A stretch of DNA of 64,000 nucleotides from Neodothiora populina (lineage: Eukaryota): positions 372,001-436,000 of the forward strand of contig NW_027191402.1 in NCBI RefSeq assembly GCF_041146345.1, written 5' to 3'. A program made the position numbers and the translations under genes. The notes under the pieces are model-generated. The model was given only the letters and a program-made list of their open reading frames with translations. It did not search any database and was not told the DNA's origin. Within the stretch, counting starts at the first letter, position 1, and each line of letters opens with the position of its first letter. This document shows positions 56,025 to 62,276 of the stretch, in pieces.

Positions 56025-57454
56025 CTGAGTCTAGATAGTGTGAACCTGTTGGCTACGTCAACAGCGCTCAATATTGTTGGGTTGTGATGAATGTAATGCT
56101 TGTCTCGAGAGGGTAGAATCCAAGAGCATGATCTCAATCAACGAAGCAAAGTGGCGACTGCTAACCCAGCAGGAGGCGCACAAAGGTGAATAAACAGGGT
56201 ATTGATCACTTTGGTATACAAATCACATGTAGAGAGGACCAAGGCCAGGTAGTTGAACGATCAATTAGAGAAAGCGTATTGCGTAGCCTATATGCCTTTT
56301 ACACCATTGGCTGGATTCAAGAACCTGTCAGATTGGTGCAAGTTGATGGACAGAACATTCTCGGAAAATCTCTGCGATTAGTATAGCAGGGGCAGAGACA
56401 AATGTGTATGCCATGTTTTTCGTCGCATGGGTAAAACAATGACATGAAGTTGGTCGAGTGGCTGGCTTTTTGGGAGGCTGGGGCTATAGTAGAAGAGCAC
56501 AGGCGGAAGGGCATTAAGCGCCTTCGAGAAAGCGTCGAGATAGCGTGCAGTACTCGTGCAGTAGTGACCAAGGATGCGTTACCTTGATTTCTGTTGTTCT
56601 AGCGCTTCTAAAAGTGCTATTGGCTTGAGAATAGATGCACACTGCCGTCTTGTTAGTTGGCCGATCGATGATGTCTTTAGGATGCAGTGGATGCTTACTC
56701 GAACTATGTTGTACGTCCTAGATTTTGTTCAATGAACAAGGATTACTTGGCGACTTACGTAGATTGAGCATGAGCAGTGGTGAAACACTTCATGACGAAG
56801 AGTACACTAGCTCGACAATCCCATGAAAAGGACTCAAGGCAAGTTGCCTCATGCTGCTGCGATGGGCTTGCTGCTGTAAGAAGTACGCCTATGCCTGCCA
56901 AAACGCGTATACTTGCCTCGCATTCGGCAGAAACGACCATGTTGGTTGAGTTACACAAGCAGGGATATCGGACCGTGCTACGGAACGAGATAAGGAGACG
57001 TAGCACTCCTTTGATCGGGTACTCCGGACCAAGTAATCTCACACTACTCGCCGGACGGGACATATCGCGTAATCGCAGTAGGTCAAAGGCGAGAACAGAC
57101 ATGGTGCTGAGCCCCTTCAAAGCCCCCTTCGAGGCCCCTGGACTCAATCCGCTTCGAGGTGCCAATGAGCGAACGCCGCTTTTCCCCCAGATCTGCCAAG
57201 TCCTTTGTAGCAGAAGCTGAACGATTGAGGTAAGGTGGTATCGAAGCATACCTTACTCTGTACAGTAAGGTACCGTACTTTACAGTATACAATTGTACTT
57301 TTCGTGTACATGTTGTGAACTCGACATAGGGAAGGGGGCCACGCGCACATTTTGTTCCTCTTAGATCAAACATCCCAGCATCGAGGTGTAGACATGGGCA
57401 GTGGAGTGATCAGGAATTCATGATAACCTCGTCTTAAACGACACATGTCCGGAC

Positions 57455-59938
57455 ATGCGATCACCTTTGAACATCCTCTTCTTGGCGGCCACATGCGCCG
57501 CCGCCATAGCCAGGACAGACTACGACAGTAACGATTATTACGCCGTCCATCTCGCTCCTTCCGTCGACCCTTCGGCCGTCGCTGCTCATTTTGGATTACA
57601 GCTTCACGGCGCCATCGGTCAGCTAGAAGACCACTATCTTCTCGAAGCCCCTAAGGGCGACCACGACATAATCAAGCAGGCCAAGGATGACCTGAAGCGA
57701 CTACGGAGGAAGAGACAGCGAGGCTGGAACGTCCCACATCTGCTCGACGATGTTTTACTCAACCAAAAGCAAGAGCGCCGTCAGAGGCTGTCCAAACGCG
57801 GAGTGGCCCCCTTAACAAGGGCGGAGGAAGAGCCTCCCGTGGACTCAAATGTGCAAAAGGGCAAAGACATTGCCAAATCCCTGAACATTGTGGATCCCAT
57901 ATTCATGGATCAATGGCATCTATACAACGCTGCGCAGCCCGGACATGATATCAACGTGACAGGAGTATGGCAGCAGGGGATCACAGGCAAGAACAGCACC
58001 GTGTGCATCGTCGACGATGGCCTGGACATGGACAGCGATGATCTGCGAGACAACTACTTCGCCGCTGGCTCATACGACTTCAACGACCAGGTCGAAGATC
58101 CCAAACCTAGACTATCAGATGACAGACACGGCACTCGTTGCGCGGGAGAGGTTGCCGCAGGGAGAAACGACGTCTGCGGTGTCGGCGTGGCATACGACTC
58201 CAAGATCTCAGGCTTGCGCATCCTTTCCGCACTCATCTCAGATGCTGATGAAGCCGTTGCAATGACCTACGCATACCAGGACAATCACATCTACTCGTGC
58301 TCCTGGGGACCCCCAGACGATGGTCGAAGCATGGAAGGACCCGGCATACTCATTCGCCGAGCCATGGTCACCGGCGTACAAAAGGGACGCGGAGGTCTAG
58401 GGAGTGTCTACGTATTCGCCATCGGCAACGGTGCCAATAACGACGACAACTGTAATTTCGACGGCTACACGAACAGCATCTACAGCGTCTCTGTTGGCGG
58501 CATCGACAGAAAGGGACTTCATCCCTACTACAGCGAGAAGTGCTCGGCCCAGCTCGTTGTGACCTACAGCTCTGGTTCTGGCGACGCCATCCACACAACC
58601 GATGTAGGGCAAAATAAATGCTATGAAAACCACGGCGGCACCTCCGCTGCCGGTCCTCTGGTCGCTGGCATCTATGCCTTGGTCTTGGAAGTCCGCGACG
58701 ATCTGTCGTGGCGCGACTTCCAGTGGCTCACCGTCATGACCGCTGCTCCTGTCGATCAAGAGAGTGACTGGCAGGACACTACGACCGGTCGTCGTTTCAG
58801 CCATCAATTTGGGTACGGAAAGATCGATGCATATGCCATTGTCGAGGCGGCCAAGACCTGGAAGCCCGTCAAGCCACAAGCCTGGTTCTTCTCGCCGTGG
58901 TTGCACGTCAGGCATGACGTCCCTCAAGGTGACAAGGGTCTTGCCTCACACTTCAATGTAACGAAAGAGATGATGCAGAAGGCGAATCTAGAGAGACTCG
59001 AGCACGTCACCGTCACAATGAATGTGGAGCACACTAGACGAGGAGATCTCAGCGTCGAACTTCGCTCACCGTCAGGGATCGTTTCGCATATCGCTACGTC
59101 ACGCAAGAACGATGCGGCAGAGTCAGGCTACGTCGACTGGACGTTCATGTCAGTCGCGCACTGGGGAGAGGATGGAATAGGCACATGGACAGTGATAGTC
59201 AAGGACACGGTTCAAAACGAGCACAGCGGCCGCTTCACTGACTGGCGATTGAAATTCTGGGGTGAAGCTGAAGACGCTGCAAAGCAGAAGCTTCTCCCGC
59301 TGCCGACTGAGAGCGAAGACGACGACCATGATGTGGAGACCACCAGTGCCGTCGTCGGAACGACAAGTGTCGATGTCCCTACGCACACAGGCACTCCGGT
59401 AGGCAACCCTACTGATCACATTGATCGGCCCGTCAACAGCAAGACCTCGGCGACAGCAACGGGAACGACTGCAGCAACGTCAAAACCTTCCAGCACCTCT
59501 GTTGCCGAAGAGCCCGTCGACGAAGCGAAACCGACCGCTTCATCATCGCCCGAACCATCAATATTCCCGACCTTCGGCGTGTCCAAGCGTACACGCATCT
59601 GGATCTACGGAGCACTAGCACTGATATCAATCTTCTGCGTCTCGCTGAGCGTCTGGTATTATCTTGCGCGCCGACGCCGACAGCGCGACGCACGGGACGA
59701 GTACGAATTCGAGATGCTGAACGACGAAGAGATAGACGATGATAGCACACCGAACGGAGCTAATGGATCCGGTCTGAGCGCAAAAGCTAAGGGTAAGCGC
59801 AGAGCGGGCGAGCTTTACGATGCCTTTGCCGAGGGCAGCGACGACGAAGACGATGTCTTCAGTATTGGCGACGAGGATGATCACGTCGGCGTCTATCGAG
59901 ACGAGGCCGATGATCATGTGCATCATGAAGATCGATGA
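57455..59938 (+). CDS. KEX2: Kexin (subtilisin-like proprotein convertase)
   Basis: Signal peptide and propeptide ending LSKR. Catalytic residues: Asp (IVDDGLD), His (RHGTRCAGE), Asn (IGNG) and Ser (HGGTSAAGP). Then P domain (LEHVTV..RRGDL), Ser/Thr stalk, TM helix and acidic tail with YEFEML. Confidence 0.97.
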   Translation: MRSPLNILFLAATCAAAIARTDYDSNDYYAVHLAPSVDPSAVAAHFGLQLHGAIGQLEDHYLLEAPKGDHDIIKQAKDDLKRLRRKRQRGWNVPHLLDDVLLNQKQERRQRLSKRGVAPLTRAEEEPPVDSNVQKGKDIAKSLNIVDPIFMDQWHLYNAAQPGHDINVTGVWQQGITGKNSTVCIVDDGLDMDSDDLRDNYFAAGSYDFNDQVEDPKPRLSDDRHGTRCAGEVAAGRNDVCGVGVAYDSKISGLRILSALISDADEAVAMTYAYQDNHIYSCSWGPPDDGRSMEGPGILIRRAMVTGVQKGRGGLGSVYVFAIGNGANNDDNCNFDGYTNSIYSVSVGGIDRKGLHPYYSEKCSAQLVVTYSSGSGDAIHTTDVGQNKCYENHGGTSAAGPLVAGIYALVLEVRDDLSWRDFQWLTVMTAAPVDQESDWQDTTTGRRFSHQFGYGKIDAYAIVEAAKTWKPVKPQAWFFSPWLHVRHDVPQGDKGLASHFNVTKEMMQKANLERLEHVTVTMNVEHTRRGDLSVELRSPSGIVSHIATSRKNDAAESGYVDWTFMSVAHWGEDGIGTWTVIVKDTVQNEHSGRFTDWRLKFWGEAEDAAKQKLLPLPTESEDDDHDVETTSAVVGTTSVDVPTHTGTPVGNPTDHIDRPVNSKTSATATGTTAATSKPSSTSVAEEPVDEAKPTASSSPEPSIFPTFGVSKRTRIWIYGALALISIFCVSLSVWYYLARRRRQRDARDEYEFEMLNDEEIDDDSTPNGANGSGLSAKAKGKRRAGELYDAFAEGSDDEDDVFSIGDEDDHVGVYRDEADDHVHHEDR

Positions 59939-60970
59939 TCGTTCTACTCTGTTTTCTAGACAGTTTGCATGTCTATGCAAAGGTGCTTACAACTCCACAG
60001 CGAAAAGAATTGGAAAATGTGTAAATGCGGAGAGCGTCGGTGATGCAAGTGCAACTCCCCGCGACTTACTTTCAGGGACCTGTAGCACACTTTTAGTGAT
60101 ATGAGGCTCAAATGTTTAATCAGATTAAGGGTTCGTAAAGCGGCCCGCTTAAACACTGCACTACAGCTGCATGAAGGGCTGCAGTGGCTCACTGTATTGC
60201 TTCGCACCAAGTCTAATCAGCCGACCGAATCGTATCCATTTGAGTGCTTCCATCCAGTCGACACACTTACTGGCCAGACTTGAGGGCCACCCGTGTAGAC
60301 TACAAATAAGGTGAAGCTACATGACACTGTCGCAAACATGCGGCCTTCCGAAGAATGAAAATGTCTCAAAGTGCTGTGCATGAACCAAGAGTTTCCAGTA
60401 GTGTGTCAATTGTCACCTTAATGCAGTCTTGTAGCATCTCGAGGTCGTGCCCAGAACACAATTGATAAATGGGACTGTTGAACGTCTTTGGGCGCTCGCG
60501 GCCAGGGTACCTTTGGGAAATACAGATTCATAAGCACCACATCTCCATGGACTTCAACATGATGCTCTCTTGTCCTGTATACGAATGAAGAGTTGGTGAA
60601 GAGAGTGTGAATCAGTTCTTCAACTTCCGTGAAATAAATTGCAGCAATGTCTTCGATGTGCAAGTGAGGAGTGAGGGAAGGACATTGGATTGAGAGCGGC
60701 GAGCTGGGCGATGGTGTTATCACGGGCGCAGAGCTTTGCCAAGGAAACCATCTGATGCCGCTTCGATCTCTTGCACCCCCCACAGCCACAGGCCCTCAGG
60801 ACAACCATTCCGTCACTCAAGTCGCCGACCAGCCACCACATCGAAGGCCTCCCTTCAGGCATTTCTTACAATTTCGCAGCCAGCTCACCCGCCAAGTGGT
60901 AGCGATATTGCTGCTTGGACTTCTCATCACCGTTTCCACGAGGCCTGCGCAGGCCGGGGTTCAGCCCACC

Positions 60971-62276
60971 ATGTCGAGGGTATACGCTGAGGTCAATCAG
61001 CACATGCCCAGATCCTACTGGGATTATGATAGTGTCAACATCAGCTGGGGCGTTTTGGAGAACTATGAGGTTGTTCGCAAGATAGGTGCGCCGTCACGGA
61101 GATGCTCGAGGCCTCATCTCGAACACCACTTCTAGCCCTTTTGGTCGTGGTGTCTCAACAGAAACGGAAACACACCACGGCCACGCGCTTTGATGTCTAA
61201 TGGCTGGGACTGACAACTTGCAGGCAGGGGAAAATACTCCGAAGTTTTCGAGGGAATCAACGTTGTCAATTACCAGAAATGCGTCATCAAGGTGCTCAAG
61301 CCTGTCAAGAAGAAGAAGATAAAGCGCGAGATCAAGATTCTCCAGAATCTGAGTGGTGGACCAAACATCGTTGCTCTCCTCGATGTGGTTCGCGACAGTC
61401 AGGTGCGTACACATCAGCGACGACCAGATACGGCATAAGAGACTAATTAATGTAGAGCAAAACGCCATCGCTGATCTTCGAATGTGTCAACAACACCGAT
61501 TTTAGAAGCCTCTACCCCAAATTCGTCGATTACGATGTCCGTTACTATATATTTGAGCTATTGAAGGTATTGCCCGATTCCAAACCCAAGACAGCCAGCG
61601 GAGCTTAGCTGATGTGCGTTTGGCAGGCACTCGACTTTTGTCACAGCAAGGGCATCATGCACCGAGACGTCAAACCTCACAACGTGATGATAGACCACGA
61701 GAAGAAGAAGCTACGTCTGATCGATTGGGGTCTCGCCGAATTCTACCACGCCGGAACCGAGTACAACGTGCGCGTCGCGTCGCGTTACTTCAAGGGACCC
61801 GAGCTCCTCGTCGACTTCCAGGAATACGATTACTCTCTCGACATGTGGTCGCTCGGAGCCATGTTTGCCTCTATGATCTTCCGAAAGGAGCCCTTCTTCC
61901 ACGGCAACAGCAACTCGGATCAACTTGTTAAGATTGCTAAAGTTCTGGGAACGGAGGATCTTTTCGACTACCTCGACAAGTACGACATCGAGCTCGACGC
62001 CCAATACGATGACATTCTCGGCCGCTTCCCCAAGAAGAACTGGCACAGCTTCGTAAATTCGGAGAACCAGAGATTCGTGAGCAACGATGCCATAGACTTT
62101 CTAGATAAGCTCCTCCGCTACGACCACCAGGTAAGCCCGCGACTGCAAAAGATTCCAGCTTCCGATGGCTAACATAATTTCAGGAGCGTCTGACCGCAAA
62201 GGAGGCCATGGCACACCCGTACTTTGCGCCTGTACGCCAGGCAGCTGCACAACAAACAGACGCAGCGCATACCTAA
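60971..62276 (+). CDS. CKA1: Casein kinase II catalytic alpha subunit
   Basis: Exons 60971-61085, 61224-61402, 61456-61566, 61627-62130, 62184-62276. [54 protein letters not shown]. Confidence 0.97.

Follow-up and report, generated by a model that had tools for sequence, protein, structure and literature searches.

Introduction

Few eukaryotic kinases have been studied as much as CK2, which counts as a soluble enzyme of the nucleus and cytosol; to our knowledge, the origin of 'ecto' or organelle-associated CK2 activity is unsettled. Here we analyze the gene for the catalytic subunit, CK2-alpha, in a 64,000-nucleotide stretch of Neodothiora populina DNA (contig NW_027191402.1, positions 372,001 to 436,000 of the forward strand; hereafter the window), and above all the 72 codons that continue the kinase reading frame upstream of its conserved start, which we call the leader. 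A first reading of this DNA, the original prediction, described the leader as shaped like a secretory signal peptide and suggested a possible second isoform that is membrane-anchored, secreted or located in the lumen of the endoplasmic reticulum. We propose, with moderate confidence, that the leader encodes a minor form of CK2-alpha with an extended N-terminus and an uncleaved membrane-anchor helix.

Paired start codons of this kind have been described in fungi. In the available sections of the paper that describes them, in Cryptococcus and Neurospora, each DualAUG gene has a targeting sequence flanked by two AUGs in one frame, the first leaky and the second strong, and leaky scanning from one start to the other requires an ATG-free gap (Wallace et al., 2020; PMC7049704). 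The CK2-alpha locus of the window shares this architecture: its upstream ATG is weak, its main ATG is strong and in the same frame, and the gap between the two holds a candidate targeting helix and no ATG. Its main start, cccaccATG, also shares the hexamer that the available text calls strong for cccaccAUU (PMC7049704). The locus departs from the described genes in the nature of the element between the starts. Known cases are, in the same sections, mostly mitochondrial presequences, with no enrichment for signal peptides before the alternative start (PMC7049704), whereas the element in the window is a hydrophobic helix lying 47 residues from the N-terminus, and use of its upstream ATG is putative.

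A second relevant case is Neurospora cpc-1, in which a conserved N-terminal extension is translated from non-AUG codons, according to the available part of the report (Ivanov et al., 2017; PMC5487733). The argument made there, like ours, rests on an upstream frame that is kept open across a fungal group. However, the cpc-1 extension is described in that text as being as conserved as the main open reading frame (ORF), with near-cognate codons that are conserved and were tested in vitro (PMC5487733), while the CK2-alpha leader has weak amino-acid conservation and no conserved start codon. CK2 itself is not mentioned in the cpc-1 paper (0 occurrences; PMC5487733).

The nearest precedent for an N-terminal extension that sends a CK2 catalytic subunit into an organelle comes from plants, where the plastid enzyme (cpCK2/pCKII) is described, in the accessible portions of the sources, as a CK2-alpha that carries a transit peptide at its N-terminus (PMC4112627, PMC2679645). 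Unlike that enzyme, which has a separate gene and a cleaved chloroplast transit peptide, the arrangement considered here involves one gene with two possible starts and an anchor-like helix.

Casein kinase activity outside the cytosol also has precedents in animals. Fam20C is the Golgi casein kinase; it has an unrelated kinase fold and a classical signal sequence. It shares with mammalian ecto-CK2, as described in the available text on the latter (PMC12422478), an acidophilic Ser/Thr kinase activity that is exerted outside the cytosol. If the proposed fungal anchor has its N-terminus in the cytosol, the kinase domain would face the lumen or the outside. A literature search, with most subscription journals beyond its reach, found no description of a membrane or signal extension on a fungal CK2-alpha, and the available portions of the two papers on fungal start codons describe no such CK2-alpha extension (PMC7049704, PMC5487733). 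Public databases already list extended models, 387-508 amino acids long and named CK2-alpha.

A dual-start layout precedes an intact CK2-alpha gene

The gene downstream of the leader is an intact CK2-alpha. Its spliced product of 333 amino acids is 88.6-96.6% identical to six annotated CK2-alpha proteins, and its largest exon matches the Pfam Pkinase family (E 4.1e-36; Table 1). Upstream of the main start, ATG 60971, the kinase frame remains open back to a TGA at about 60665-60667, and ATG 60755 is the first ATG within it; the two other frames upstream of 60971 are open for 23 and 93 codons. The original prediction had an in-frame ATG in weak context at 60755 adding 72 amino acids ahead of an ATG in strong context at 60971, and we confirmed the coordinates, the sequence and both contexts (catctgATGcc and cccaccATGtc, respectively). 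The locus has, in short, a dual-start layout, with a weak upstream in-frame ATG, a strong downstream ATG and none between. Next to the upstream start lies a short out-of-frame upstream open reading frame (uORF) whose TGA stop (60753-60755) overlaps ATG 60755 as TGATG. If present on the messenger RNA, this uORF would promote bypass of ATG 60755.

Table 1. Features around the two possible starts of the CK2-alpha gene, in positions of the window.
Feature	Position	Strand	Description
Open frame before the CK2-alpha start	60668..60970	+	101 codons, in frame with ATG 60971
Out-of-frame uORF	60711..60755	+	14 codons; ATG in good context, G at -3, G at +4
Upstream in-frame ATG	60755..60757	+	weak context, catctgATGcc; C at -3, C at +4
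Leader	60755..60970	+	72 codons added ahead of the CK2-alpha start
ORF running from the leader into the CK2-alpha N-terminus	60755..61135	+	126 amino acids, begins MPLRSLAPP
ATG-free zone	60758..60970	+	0 ATG in any frame over 213 nucleotides, against 8 ATGs in 60500-60757
Hydrophobic core	60896..60940	+	leader residues 48-62; 15 residues without a charged or strongly polar side chain
Palindrome	60942..60955		perfect, 14 nucleotides, GGCCTGCGCAGGCC; spans codons read P-A-Q-A; 16-29 nucleotides before the main ATG
CK2-alpha gene	60971..62276	+	5 exons, 4 GT..AG introns, 333 amino acids, no internal stop
CK2-alpha exons	60971-61085, 61224-61402, 61456-61566, 61627-62130, 62184-62276	+	

The leader is predicted to form a helix ending in a hydrophobic core

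The N-terminal part of the leader is basic, and its core reaches Kyte-Doolittle (KD) means of 3.44 over 11 residues, 2.65 over 15 and 1.84 over 19. AlphaFold2, run on the 16-sequence alignment A4, predicted residues 1-33 to be disordered and residues 34-62 to form a single helix, with a mean predicted local distance difference test (pLDDT) score of 96 over residues 41-60; the helix opens with a basic amphipathic portion ahead of the hydrophobic part. Within the core, L54 is nearly invariant (at least 90%) in the same alignment, and three leucines are invariant in the 9-sequence alignment A3. The leader matches no Pfam family. An Rfam search of 60200-61300 returned no match at E <= 1, and the predicted RNA fold of 60755-60985 is no stabler than those of shuffled sequences (z = 0.10).

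An open frame and a hydrophobic stretch can each arise by chance. Of 60000 random 72-codon windows drawn from the window's non-coding DNA, 4542 were free of stops. Among 100 small non-coding ORFs, 3 had a 15-residue stretch with a KD mean of at least 2.65, as did 6 of 275 off-frame ORFs. When 60668-60970 was shuffled 5000 times by mononucleotide, 190 shuffles remained open and none of those reached KD 2.65. We estimate that an open leader with a hydrophobic core occurs by chance at roughly 0.1-0.25% per gene. Because about 20 genes per window were inspected, a coincidence of this rarity is not negligible and the window's own sequence cannot decide the matter; therefore, relatives have to decide.

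The chief alternative to a translated anchor is that the leader is an untranslated, C-rich, ATG-free 5' leader or core promoter, and that the hydrophobic stretch is a by-product of partly conserved DNA or RNA, the palindrome included. We regard this as a serious possibility, if not the one that we would choose, and the comparisons that follow bear on it throughout.

In-frame hydrophobic extensions recur among relatives

Relatives were found by searches with the leader plus exon 1 and grouped by their exon-1 signature, from ORF calls and gene models; ORF calls can reveal only in-frame extensions, a bias that has to be held against the resulting counts. The ANMPR type (n = 52), which includes named Pleosporales and Botryosphaeriales models, has at least 35 amino acids upstream in 48 cases and a 15-residue stretch with a KD mean (KD15) of at least 2.2 in 38. 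For the QQMPR, EHMPR and QHMPK types together (n = 113) the counts are 48 and 8, and for QHMPRAY, the type of the window (n = 22), they are 19 and 5. Every one of the 17 named Pleosporales models carries at least 84 extra residues, and 15 of them reach a KD15 of at least 2.0, the exceptions being Periconia P0056 and the Alternaria model P0083. The taxonomy of Corynespora, Lindgomyces, Epicoccum, Periconia, Diplodia, Phyllosticta, Aureobasidium and Elsinoe was looked up; Alternaria, Plenodomus, Pseudopithomyces, Nothophoma, Stagonosporopsis and Paraphaeosphaeria we take to belong to the Pleosporales.

The extensions of the Pleosporales share a layout. A basic region comes first, followed by a hydrophobic stretch that often opens W-N-K-A-A-A-F-G-L-L, and by L-R-x-F-T-P-P-L-D; there follow a Ser/Thr/Pro-rich linker, M-A-L-N-N-S-x-G-A-T-S and ARVYADVN. 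The cores are longer than the 15-residue core of the window, and the linker from core to kinase in Pleosporales/ANMPR-type leaders comes in 17 distinct lengths of 24-107 amino acids, all in frame, with no conserved cleavage motif. When 25 ANMPR-type cores were compared with the L054 core randomly mutated to equal amino-acid divergence, all 25 lay above the simulated mean hydrophobicity, 14 of them at P < 0.05. Hydrophobicity that is kept despite divergence is left unexplained if these leaders are untranslated.

Pleosporales-type leaders (e.g. L010, L052, L054, L072) show a further peculiarity, in that the canonical Met codon of the kinase is replaced by GTC, GTT or ATT. A conserved ATG in good context, with A at -3, lies 9-12 codons upstream in the MALNNSxGATS motif, which also holds a conserved N-x-S/T sequon. 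Since the Met codon is lost and this ATG is conserved, the main start has shifted in the Pleosporales.

In the window's own clade, eight ORF calls have the core in frame; it lies about 11 residues before the start in P0241, P0243, P0242, P0001, P0249, P0262 and P0246, and about 24 residues before it in P0254; the N-terminal parts of the relatives' leaders are not alignable. In P0255, an Aureobasidium-like ORF call, an in-frame deletion drops the hydrophobic stretch (SSTKGH-ISQRPLLPS), and the leader is still in the kinase frame.

At the DNA level, we examined the best 80 of 219 metagenome CK2-alpha loci by similarity. Within 300 nucleotides upstream, a stretch with a KD15 of at least 2.2 occurs in the kinase frame of 10 of 40 locus clusters, as opposed to 7 of 200 for the five other frames. 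This excess, confined to the kinase frame, is a second pattern for which an untranslated leader offers no explanation.

Insertions and deletions (indels) were assessed by comparing the best alignment score obtained with free gaps to that obtained with gaps restricted to multiples of three nucleotides (3n), using 2n-only gaps as a control. In nine leader pairs, the 3n-only penalty was 0-6 points in five and 28-50 in four, and the 2n-only penalty was 19-122. The Aureobasidium-like pair L001/L003 lost 3-4 points under 3n-only and 21-22 under 2n-only gaps, and the pair L046/L062 lost 6 under 3n-only gaps. Control upstream regions, from lineages without a leader ORF, lost 102-225 points under the 3n-only rule in 9 of 10 cases, the tenth being without an indel. 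Blocks directly upstream of the leaders also lost more than the leaders themselves (195 vs 0 in L010/L052, 75 vs 0 in L078/L080 and 162 vs 28 in L071/L075), in a comparison that was scorable in 5 pairs, 2 of which barely aligned. The near-exclusive 3n indels of several leader pairs, set against adjoining upstream blocks and control leaders, are again unexplained by an untranslated leader.

Codon usage adds a fourth such pattern. Scored with a small training set (1272 codons), Pleosporales-like leaders yield +0.15 to +0.26 in the kinase frame in all 8 loci and -0.31 to +0.03 in the off-frames; this coding-like score, too, goes unaccounted for when the leader is read as untranslated. By the exon-1 counts, in-frame extensions with a hydrophobic stretch are a feature of Dothideomycete CK2-alpha genes, with few cases elsewhere. 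On these selection-like patterns in the leaders of related orders, we regard the extension as a selected, translated feature in the Pleosporales and Botryosphaeriales, and it is probably translated in Aureobasidium.

Two simpler accounts of the stretch were considered and rejected. Pyrimidine-rich promoter composition does not suffice as its sole cause, given that the stretch is specific to the kinase frame and that the window's core is no pure C/T tract; composition may explain the Leu-run leaders of EHMPR-type loci (L009, L015). Accidental fusion to a separate small upstream gene was set aside because no stop lies between it and the kinase in dozens of relatives.

A proposed membrane-anchored proteoform

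Under our proposal, the majority of ribosomes would initiate at the strong ATG 60971, yielding the usual soluble kinase of 333 amino acids, and a fraction at the weak ATG 60755, yielding a form of 405 amino acids. Initiation at 60755 could come about through transcripts that begin farther upstream, through leaky scanning, or after translation of the overlapping 14-codon uORF. The extra 72 residues would comprise a disordered basic stretch and then a long helix whose last 15 residues are hydrophobic. This helix would be of the uncleaved signal-anchor type, with its N-terminus kept in the cytosol by the charge rule, and would fix part of the kinase pool to an internal membrane. In this organism, transcription and translation of the leader are inferred, and the charge rule alone suggests the target membrane and the orientation.

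That a normally soluble kinase has a second form bound to membranes is a conditional proposal, and a plausible one. To this extent the second isoform that had been postulated from the window survives: relatives within the class, 3n indels, hydrophobicity retained in the Pleosporales and Botryosphaeriales and the dual-start layout all speak for a membrane-bound product, and its cleaved, secretory version is left without support. We are doubtful of the more specific claim that Dothideomycetes, this fungus among them, make a type-II membrane-anchored CK2-alpha whose kinase domain faces the lumen of the endoplasmic reticulum (ER) or Golgi, or the cell surface. Two features of the relatives offer hints of a luminal or cell-surface kinase. 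In 32 of 39 ANMPR-type leaders, the core is flanked by more positive charge on its N-terminal than on its C-terminal side, and the linkers hold 59 N-x-S/T sequons against 24.0 expected, an excess due mostly to one conserved motif beside the kinase start.

If the proposal is correct, a heritable hydrophobic extension kept in frame would equip CK2 with an inherent means of forming a membrane-bound or luminal pool, in a class of fungi that includes many plant pathogens and black yeasts. The type-II anchored form, if real, would amount to a luminal or ecto 'casein kinase' encoded in the genome, with the role in fungi that Fam20C has in animals. If the leader is untranslated, the lesson is one of annotation: in this class, an essential kinase is systematically given about 70-170 spurious residues and a false transmembrane helix by gene predictors.

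Evidence bearing on a possible untranslated leader

A number of observations weigh against a translated anchor, and many of them are what an untranslated leader would produce. Some concern the helix itself. A single-pass membrane helix is expected to span about 18-21 residues with a 19-residue KD mean of at least 1.6; the leader has a mean of 1.84, but its uncharged run of 15 residues is short for this purpose. The charges of the flanks differ little (+3 before the core, +2 after it). In the window's clade, hydrophobicity was retained beyond the level of random mutation (P < 0.05) in 1 of 8 leaders, so that plain sequence conservation accounts for it there.

Further evidence comes from the two nearest DNA relatives, L005 and L006, with a mean column identity to the window of about 76% in the 517-column alignment A2, which includes exon 1. 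Here, indels of 4 nucleotides and 1 nucleotide and an in-frame TAG leave the hydrophobic stretch outside the kinase frame, while the flanking DNA remains alignable. The pair L005/L006 pays a 3n-only penalty of 225, indicative of non-coding-like evolution. L073 is likewise frame-shifted relative to L071 and L075. Alignment scores of the window with L001, L003, L005 and L006 are at most 27, which is too diverged for the 3n indel test. The frame is also far from universal: in 35 of the 80 metagenome loci, a stop falls 19 or fewer codons before the conserved start, in a set whose ranking query contained the leader and so somewhat favoured leader-like loci. The feature is therefore not general in the Pezizomycotina. 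In-frame stops in orthologous leaders, named at the outset as evidence that would count against translation, occur in L005 and L006 and are missing from most other relatives.

The DNA directly behind the core tells a similar story. The kinase frame of the window reads A-Q-A at 60947-60955, and it does so in the window only, on the palindrome of Table 1. The palindrome DNA, read as G(L/P)RRPG by relatives in the kinase frame, is kept in L005 and L006, as GGCCCACGCAGGCC, and might bind a protein or form a small hairpin. In P0243, P0242, P0241, P0001, L005 and L006, the kinase-frame reading of the homologous DNA is QG(L/P)(R/L)RPG(S/L)PP(A/V/E), and in the window this QGLRRPGSPPA-type reading sits in frame +1. 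This conserved DNA is thus read in different frames in the window and its relatives, as an untranslated leader would allow. Two mutually offsetting indels separate the window from its relatives, such that the core stays in frame and the 11 residues behind it are scrambled. A net restoration of the frame is the outcome that would be expected under selection for an in-frame core, and its neutral chance is about one in three.

Substitution patterns carry no signal at the amino-acid level in either direction. The Nei-Gojobori ratio of nonsynonymous to synonymous substitution (dN/dS, omega), predicted to lie below 1 in the upstream frame, was 0.62-1.22 in the kinase frame of 7 pairs and 0.58-1.96 in the off-frames, giving no sign of purifying selection in a test whose power is low in close pairs and whose divergence is saturated in distant ones. 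Across 5 lineages, the corresponding ratio of the proportions of differences (pN/pS) was 0.74, compared with 0.73 and 0.86 in the other frames, and substitutions were evenly distributed over codon positions. An omega near 1 and equal in all frames would suit an untranslated leader. Codon usage in the window points the same way. The leader scores -0.002 per codon, against an average of 0.226 (standard deviation 0.18) for coding windows of the same DNA and -0.068 for stop-free non-coding windows, 29% of which score at least as high as the leader, and is in this respect typical of the latter. Aureobasidium-like leaders have non-coding-like scores as well (-0.13 to -0.29).

The scarcity of stops and start codons can also be understood without translation. 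If the leaders are untranslated, few stops are to be expected in any of their frames because they are C-rich and ATG-free, and the off-frames of C-rich leaders do hold only 0-3 stops per 78-315 nucleotides. The absence of ATGs from 60758-60970, after 8 in the preceding 257 nucleotides, suggests that the main transcription start may follow 60757. Related leaders are ATG-poor too: they hold 18 ATGs, where shuffles predict 37.9 and blocks of equal size directly upstream contain 80. Such scarcity suits an ordinary scanned 5' untranslated region and a leaky-scanning gap equally well. As for the upstream start, L071, L075, L010, L072 and L079 have no in-frame ATG before the hydrophobic stretch, so that non-AUG starts would be required in them. 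Where relatives do have upstream ATGs, the base at -3 is A in 5 of 9 loci, G in 3 and T in 1, as compared with C in the window, and no consistent weak context emerges.

Other readings of a translated leader

We consider it unlikely that the leader is translated and has no role as an anchor. Three variants of this idea can be distinguished: selection for frame-keeping only, a degradation signal, and a two-part mitochondrial presequence. In the first, the frame would be preserved because initiation at an upstream start in another frame would prevent an essential kinase from being made. In the last, a basic amphipathic stretch would be followed by a hydrophobic stop-transfer sorting segment. A frame kept open without constraint on its amino acids, a poorly conserved upstream start codon and a helix that begins basic and amphipathic before turning hydrophobic would all fit. 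The mitochondrial variant gains from the enrichment of fungal dual-start genes for mitochondrial signals and not signal peptides in the available text (PMC7049704). However, selection on the frame only does not predict the hydrophobicity that is retained, and two acidic residues within the first 30 (D16 and D25), together with N-terminal parts that cannot be aligned, are unlike a typical matrix-targeting signal.

Least probable is a cleaved Sec-type signal peptide that releases a soluble ER-luminal or secreted ecto-CK2 after A-Q-A: the basic stretch, the 13-15-residue core and A-Q-A followed by G do match the n/h/c layout, in which the h-region has about 7-15 hydrophobic residues, but the core usually lies within the first 30 residues or so and here starts at residue 48 of the ATG-initiated leader with no closer ATG, the A-Q-A is a frame-shifted reading peculiar to the window as against six relatives, and Pleosporales-type cores stand 24-107 residues from the kinase with no conserved cleavage motif. 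What remains of the signal-peptide layout first drawn for the leader is the net charge of +3 on the 15 residues before the core and the 15-residue core itself; its position, beginning at residue 48, does not fit. The A-x-A cleavage motif is not conserved: A-Q-A, a frame-shifted reading of DNA that relatives read otherwise, is for that reason a lineage-specific by-product.

Leaders that open like signal peptides at their very N-terminus were seen elsewhere. In L046/L055/L062, P0281 and P0284, a lineage with MARIYADVNQQMPRAY, the upstream in-frame ORF has a signal-peptide-like opening, MRNITRRIPLLFVLVLVSHSVRSALA. P0322, an ANMPRSY-type sequence of 190 amino acids, has an in-frame leader of 124 residues with the signal-peptide-like N-terminus MNIFTLLIFLLLAASGAEAANESCG ahead of CK2-alpha.

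Neighbouring gene and further CK2-alpha models

The gene immediately upstream of CK2-alpha encodes a kexin-type pheromone-processing endoprotease (57410-59938, + strand). Its product is 100% identical to P0121, and its homologues carry Pfam PF00082 and PF01483. Among named relatives, it is nearest to the protein of Dothideomycetes sp. NU459 (72% identity), followed by those of Aureobasidium pullulans (71%) and Zalaria obscura (70%); identity to Elsinoe or Sphaceloma is 68%. These identities place the window among the dothideomycetes, close to the Dothideales.

CK2-alpha models from the latter two genera are built differently at both ends. P0023 (Sphaceloma murrayae) and P0028 (Elsinoe australis) are without an N-terminal extension and carry, at the C-terminus, some 80 additional residues of acidic character with KRRRTGDNEG at their end. 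Five other public models (P0047, P0082, P0051, P0062 and P0070) fuse CK2-alpha with an unrelated upstream gene; among the partners are valyl-tRNA synthetase (Aspergillus arachidicola), a PF02636 protein (lichen fungi) and a PF12720 region (Sporothrix). Such fusion models are probably annotation run-ons.

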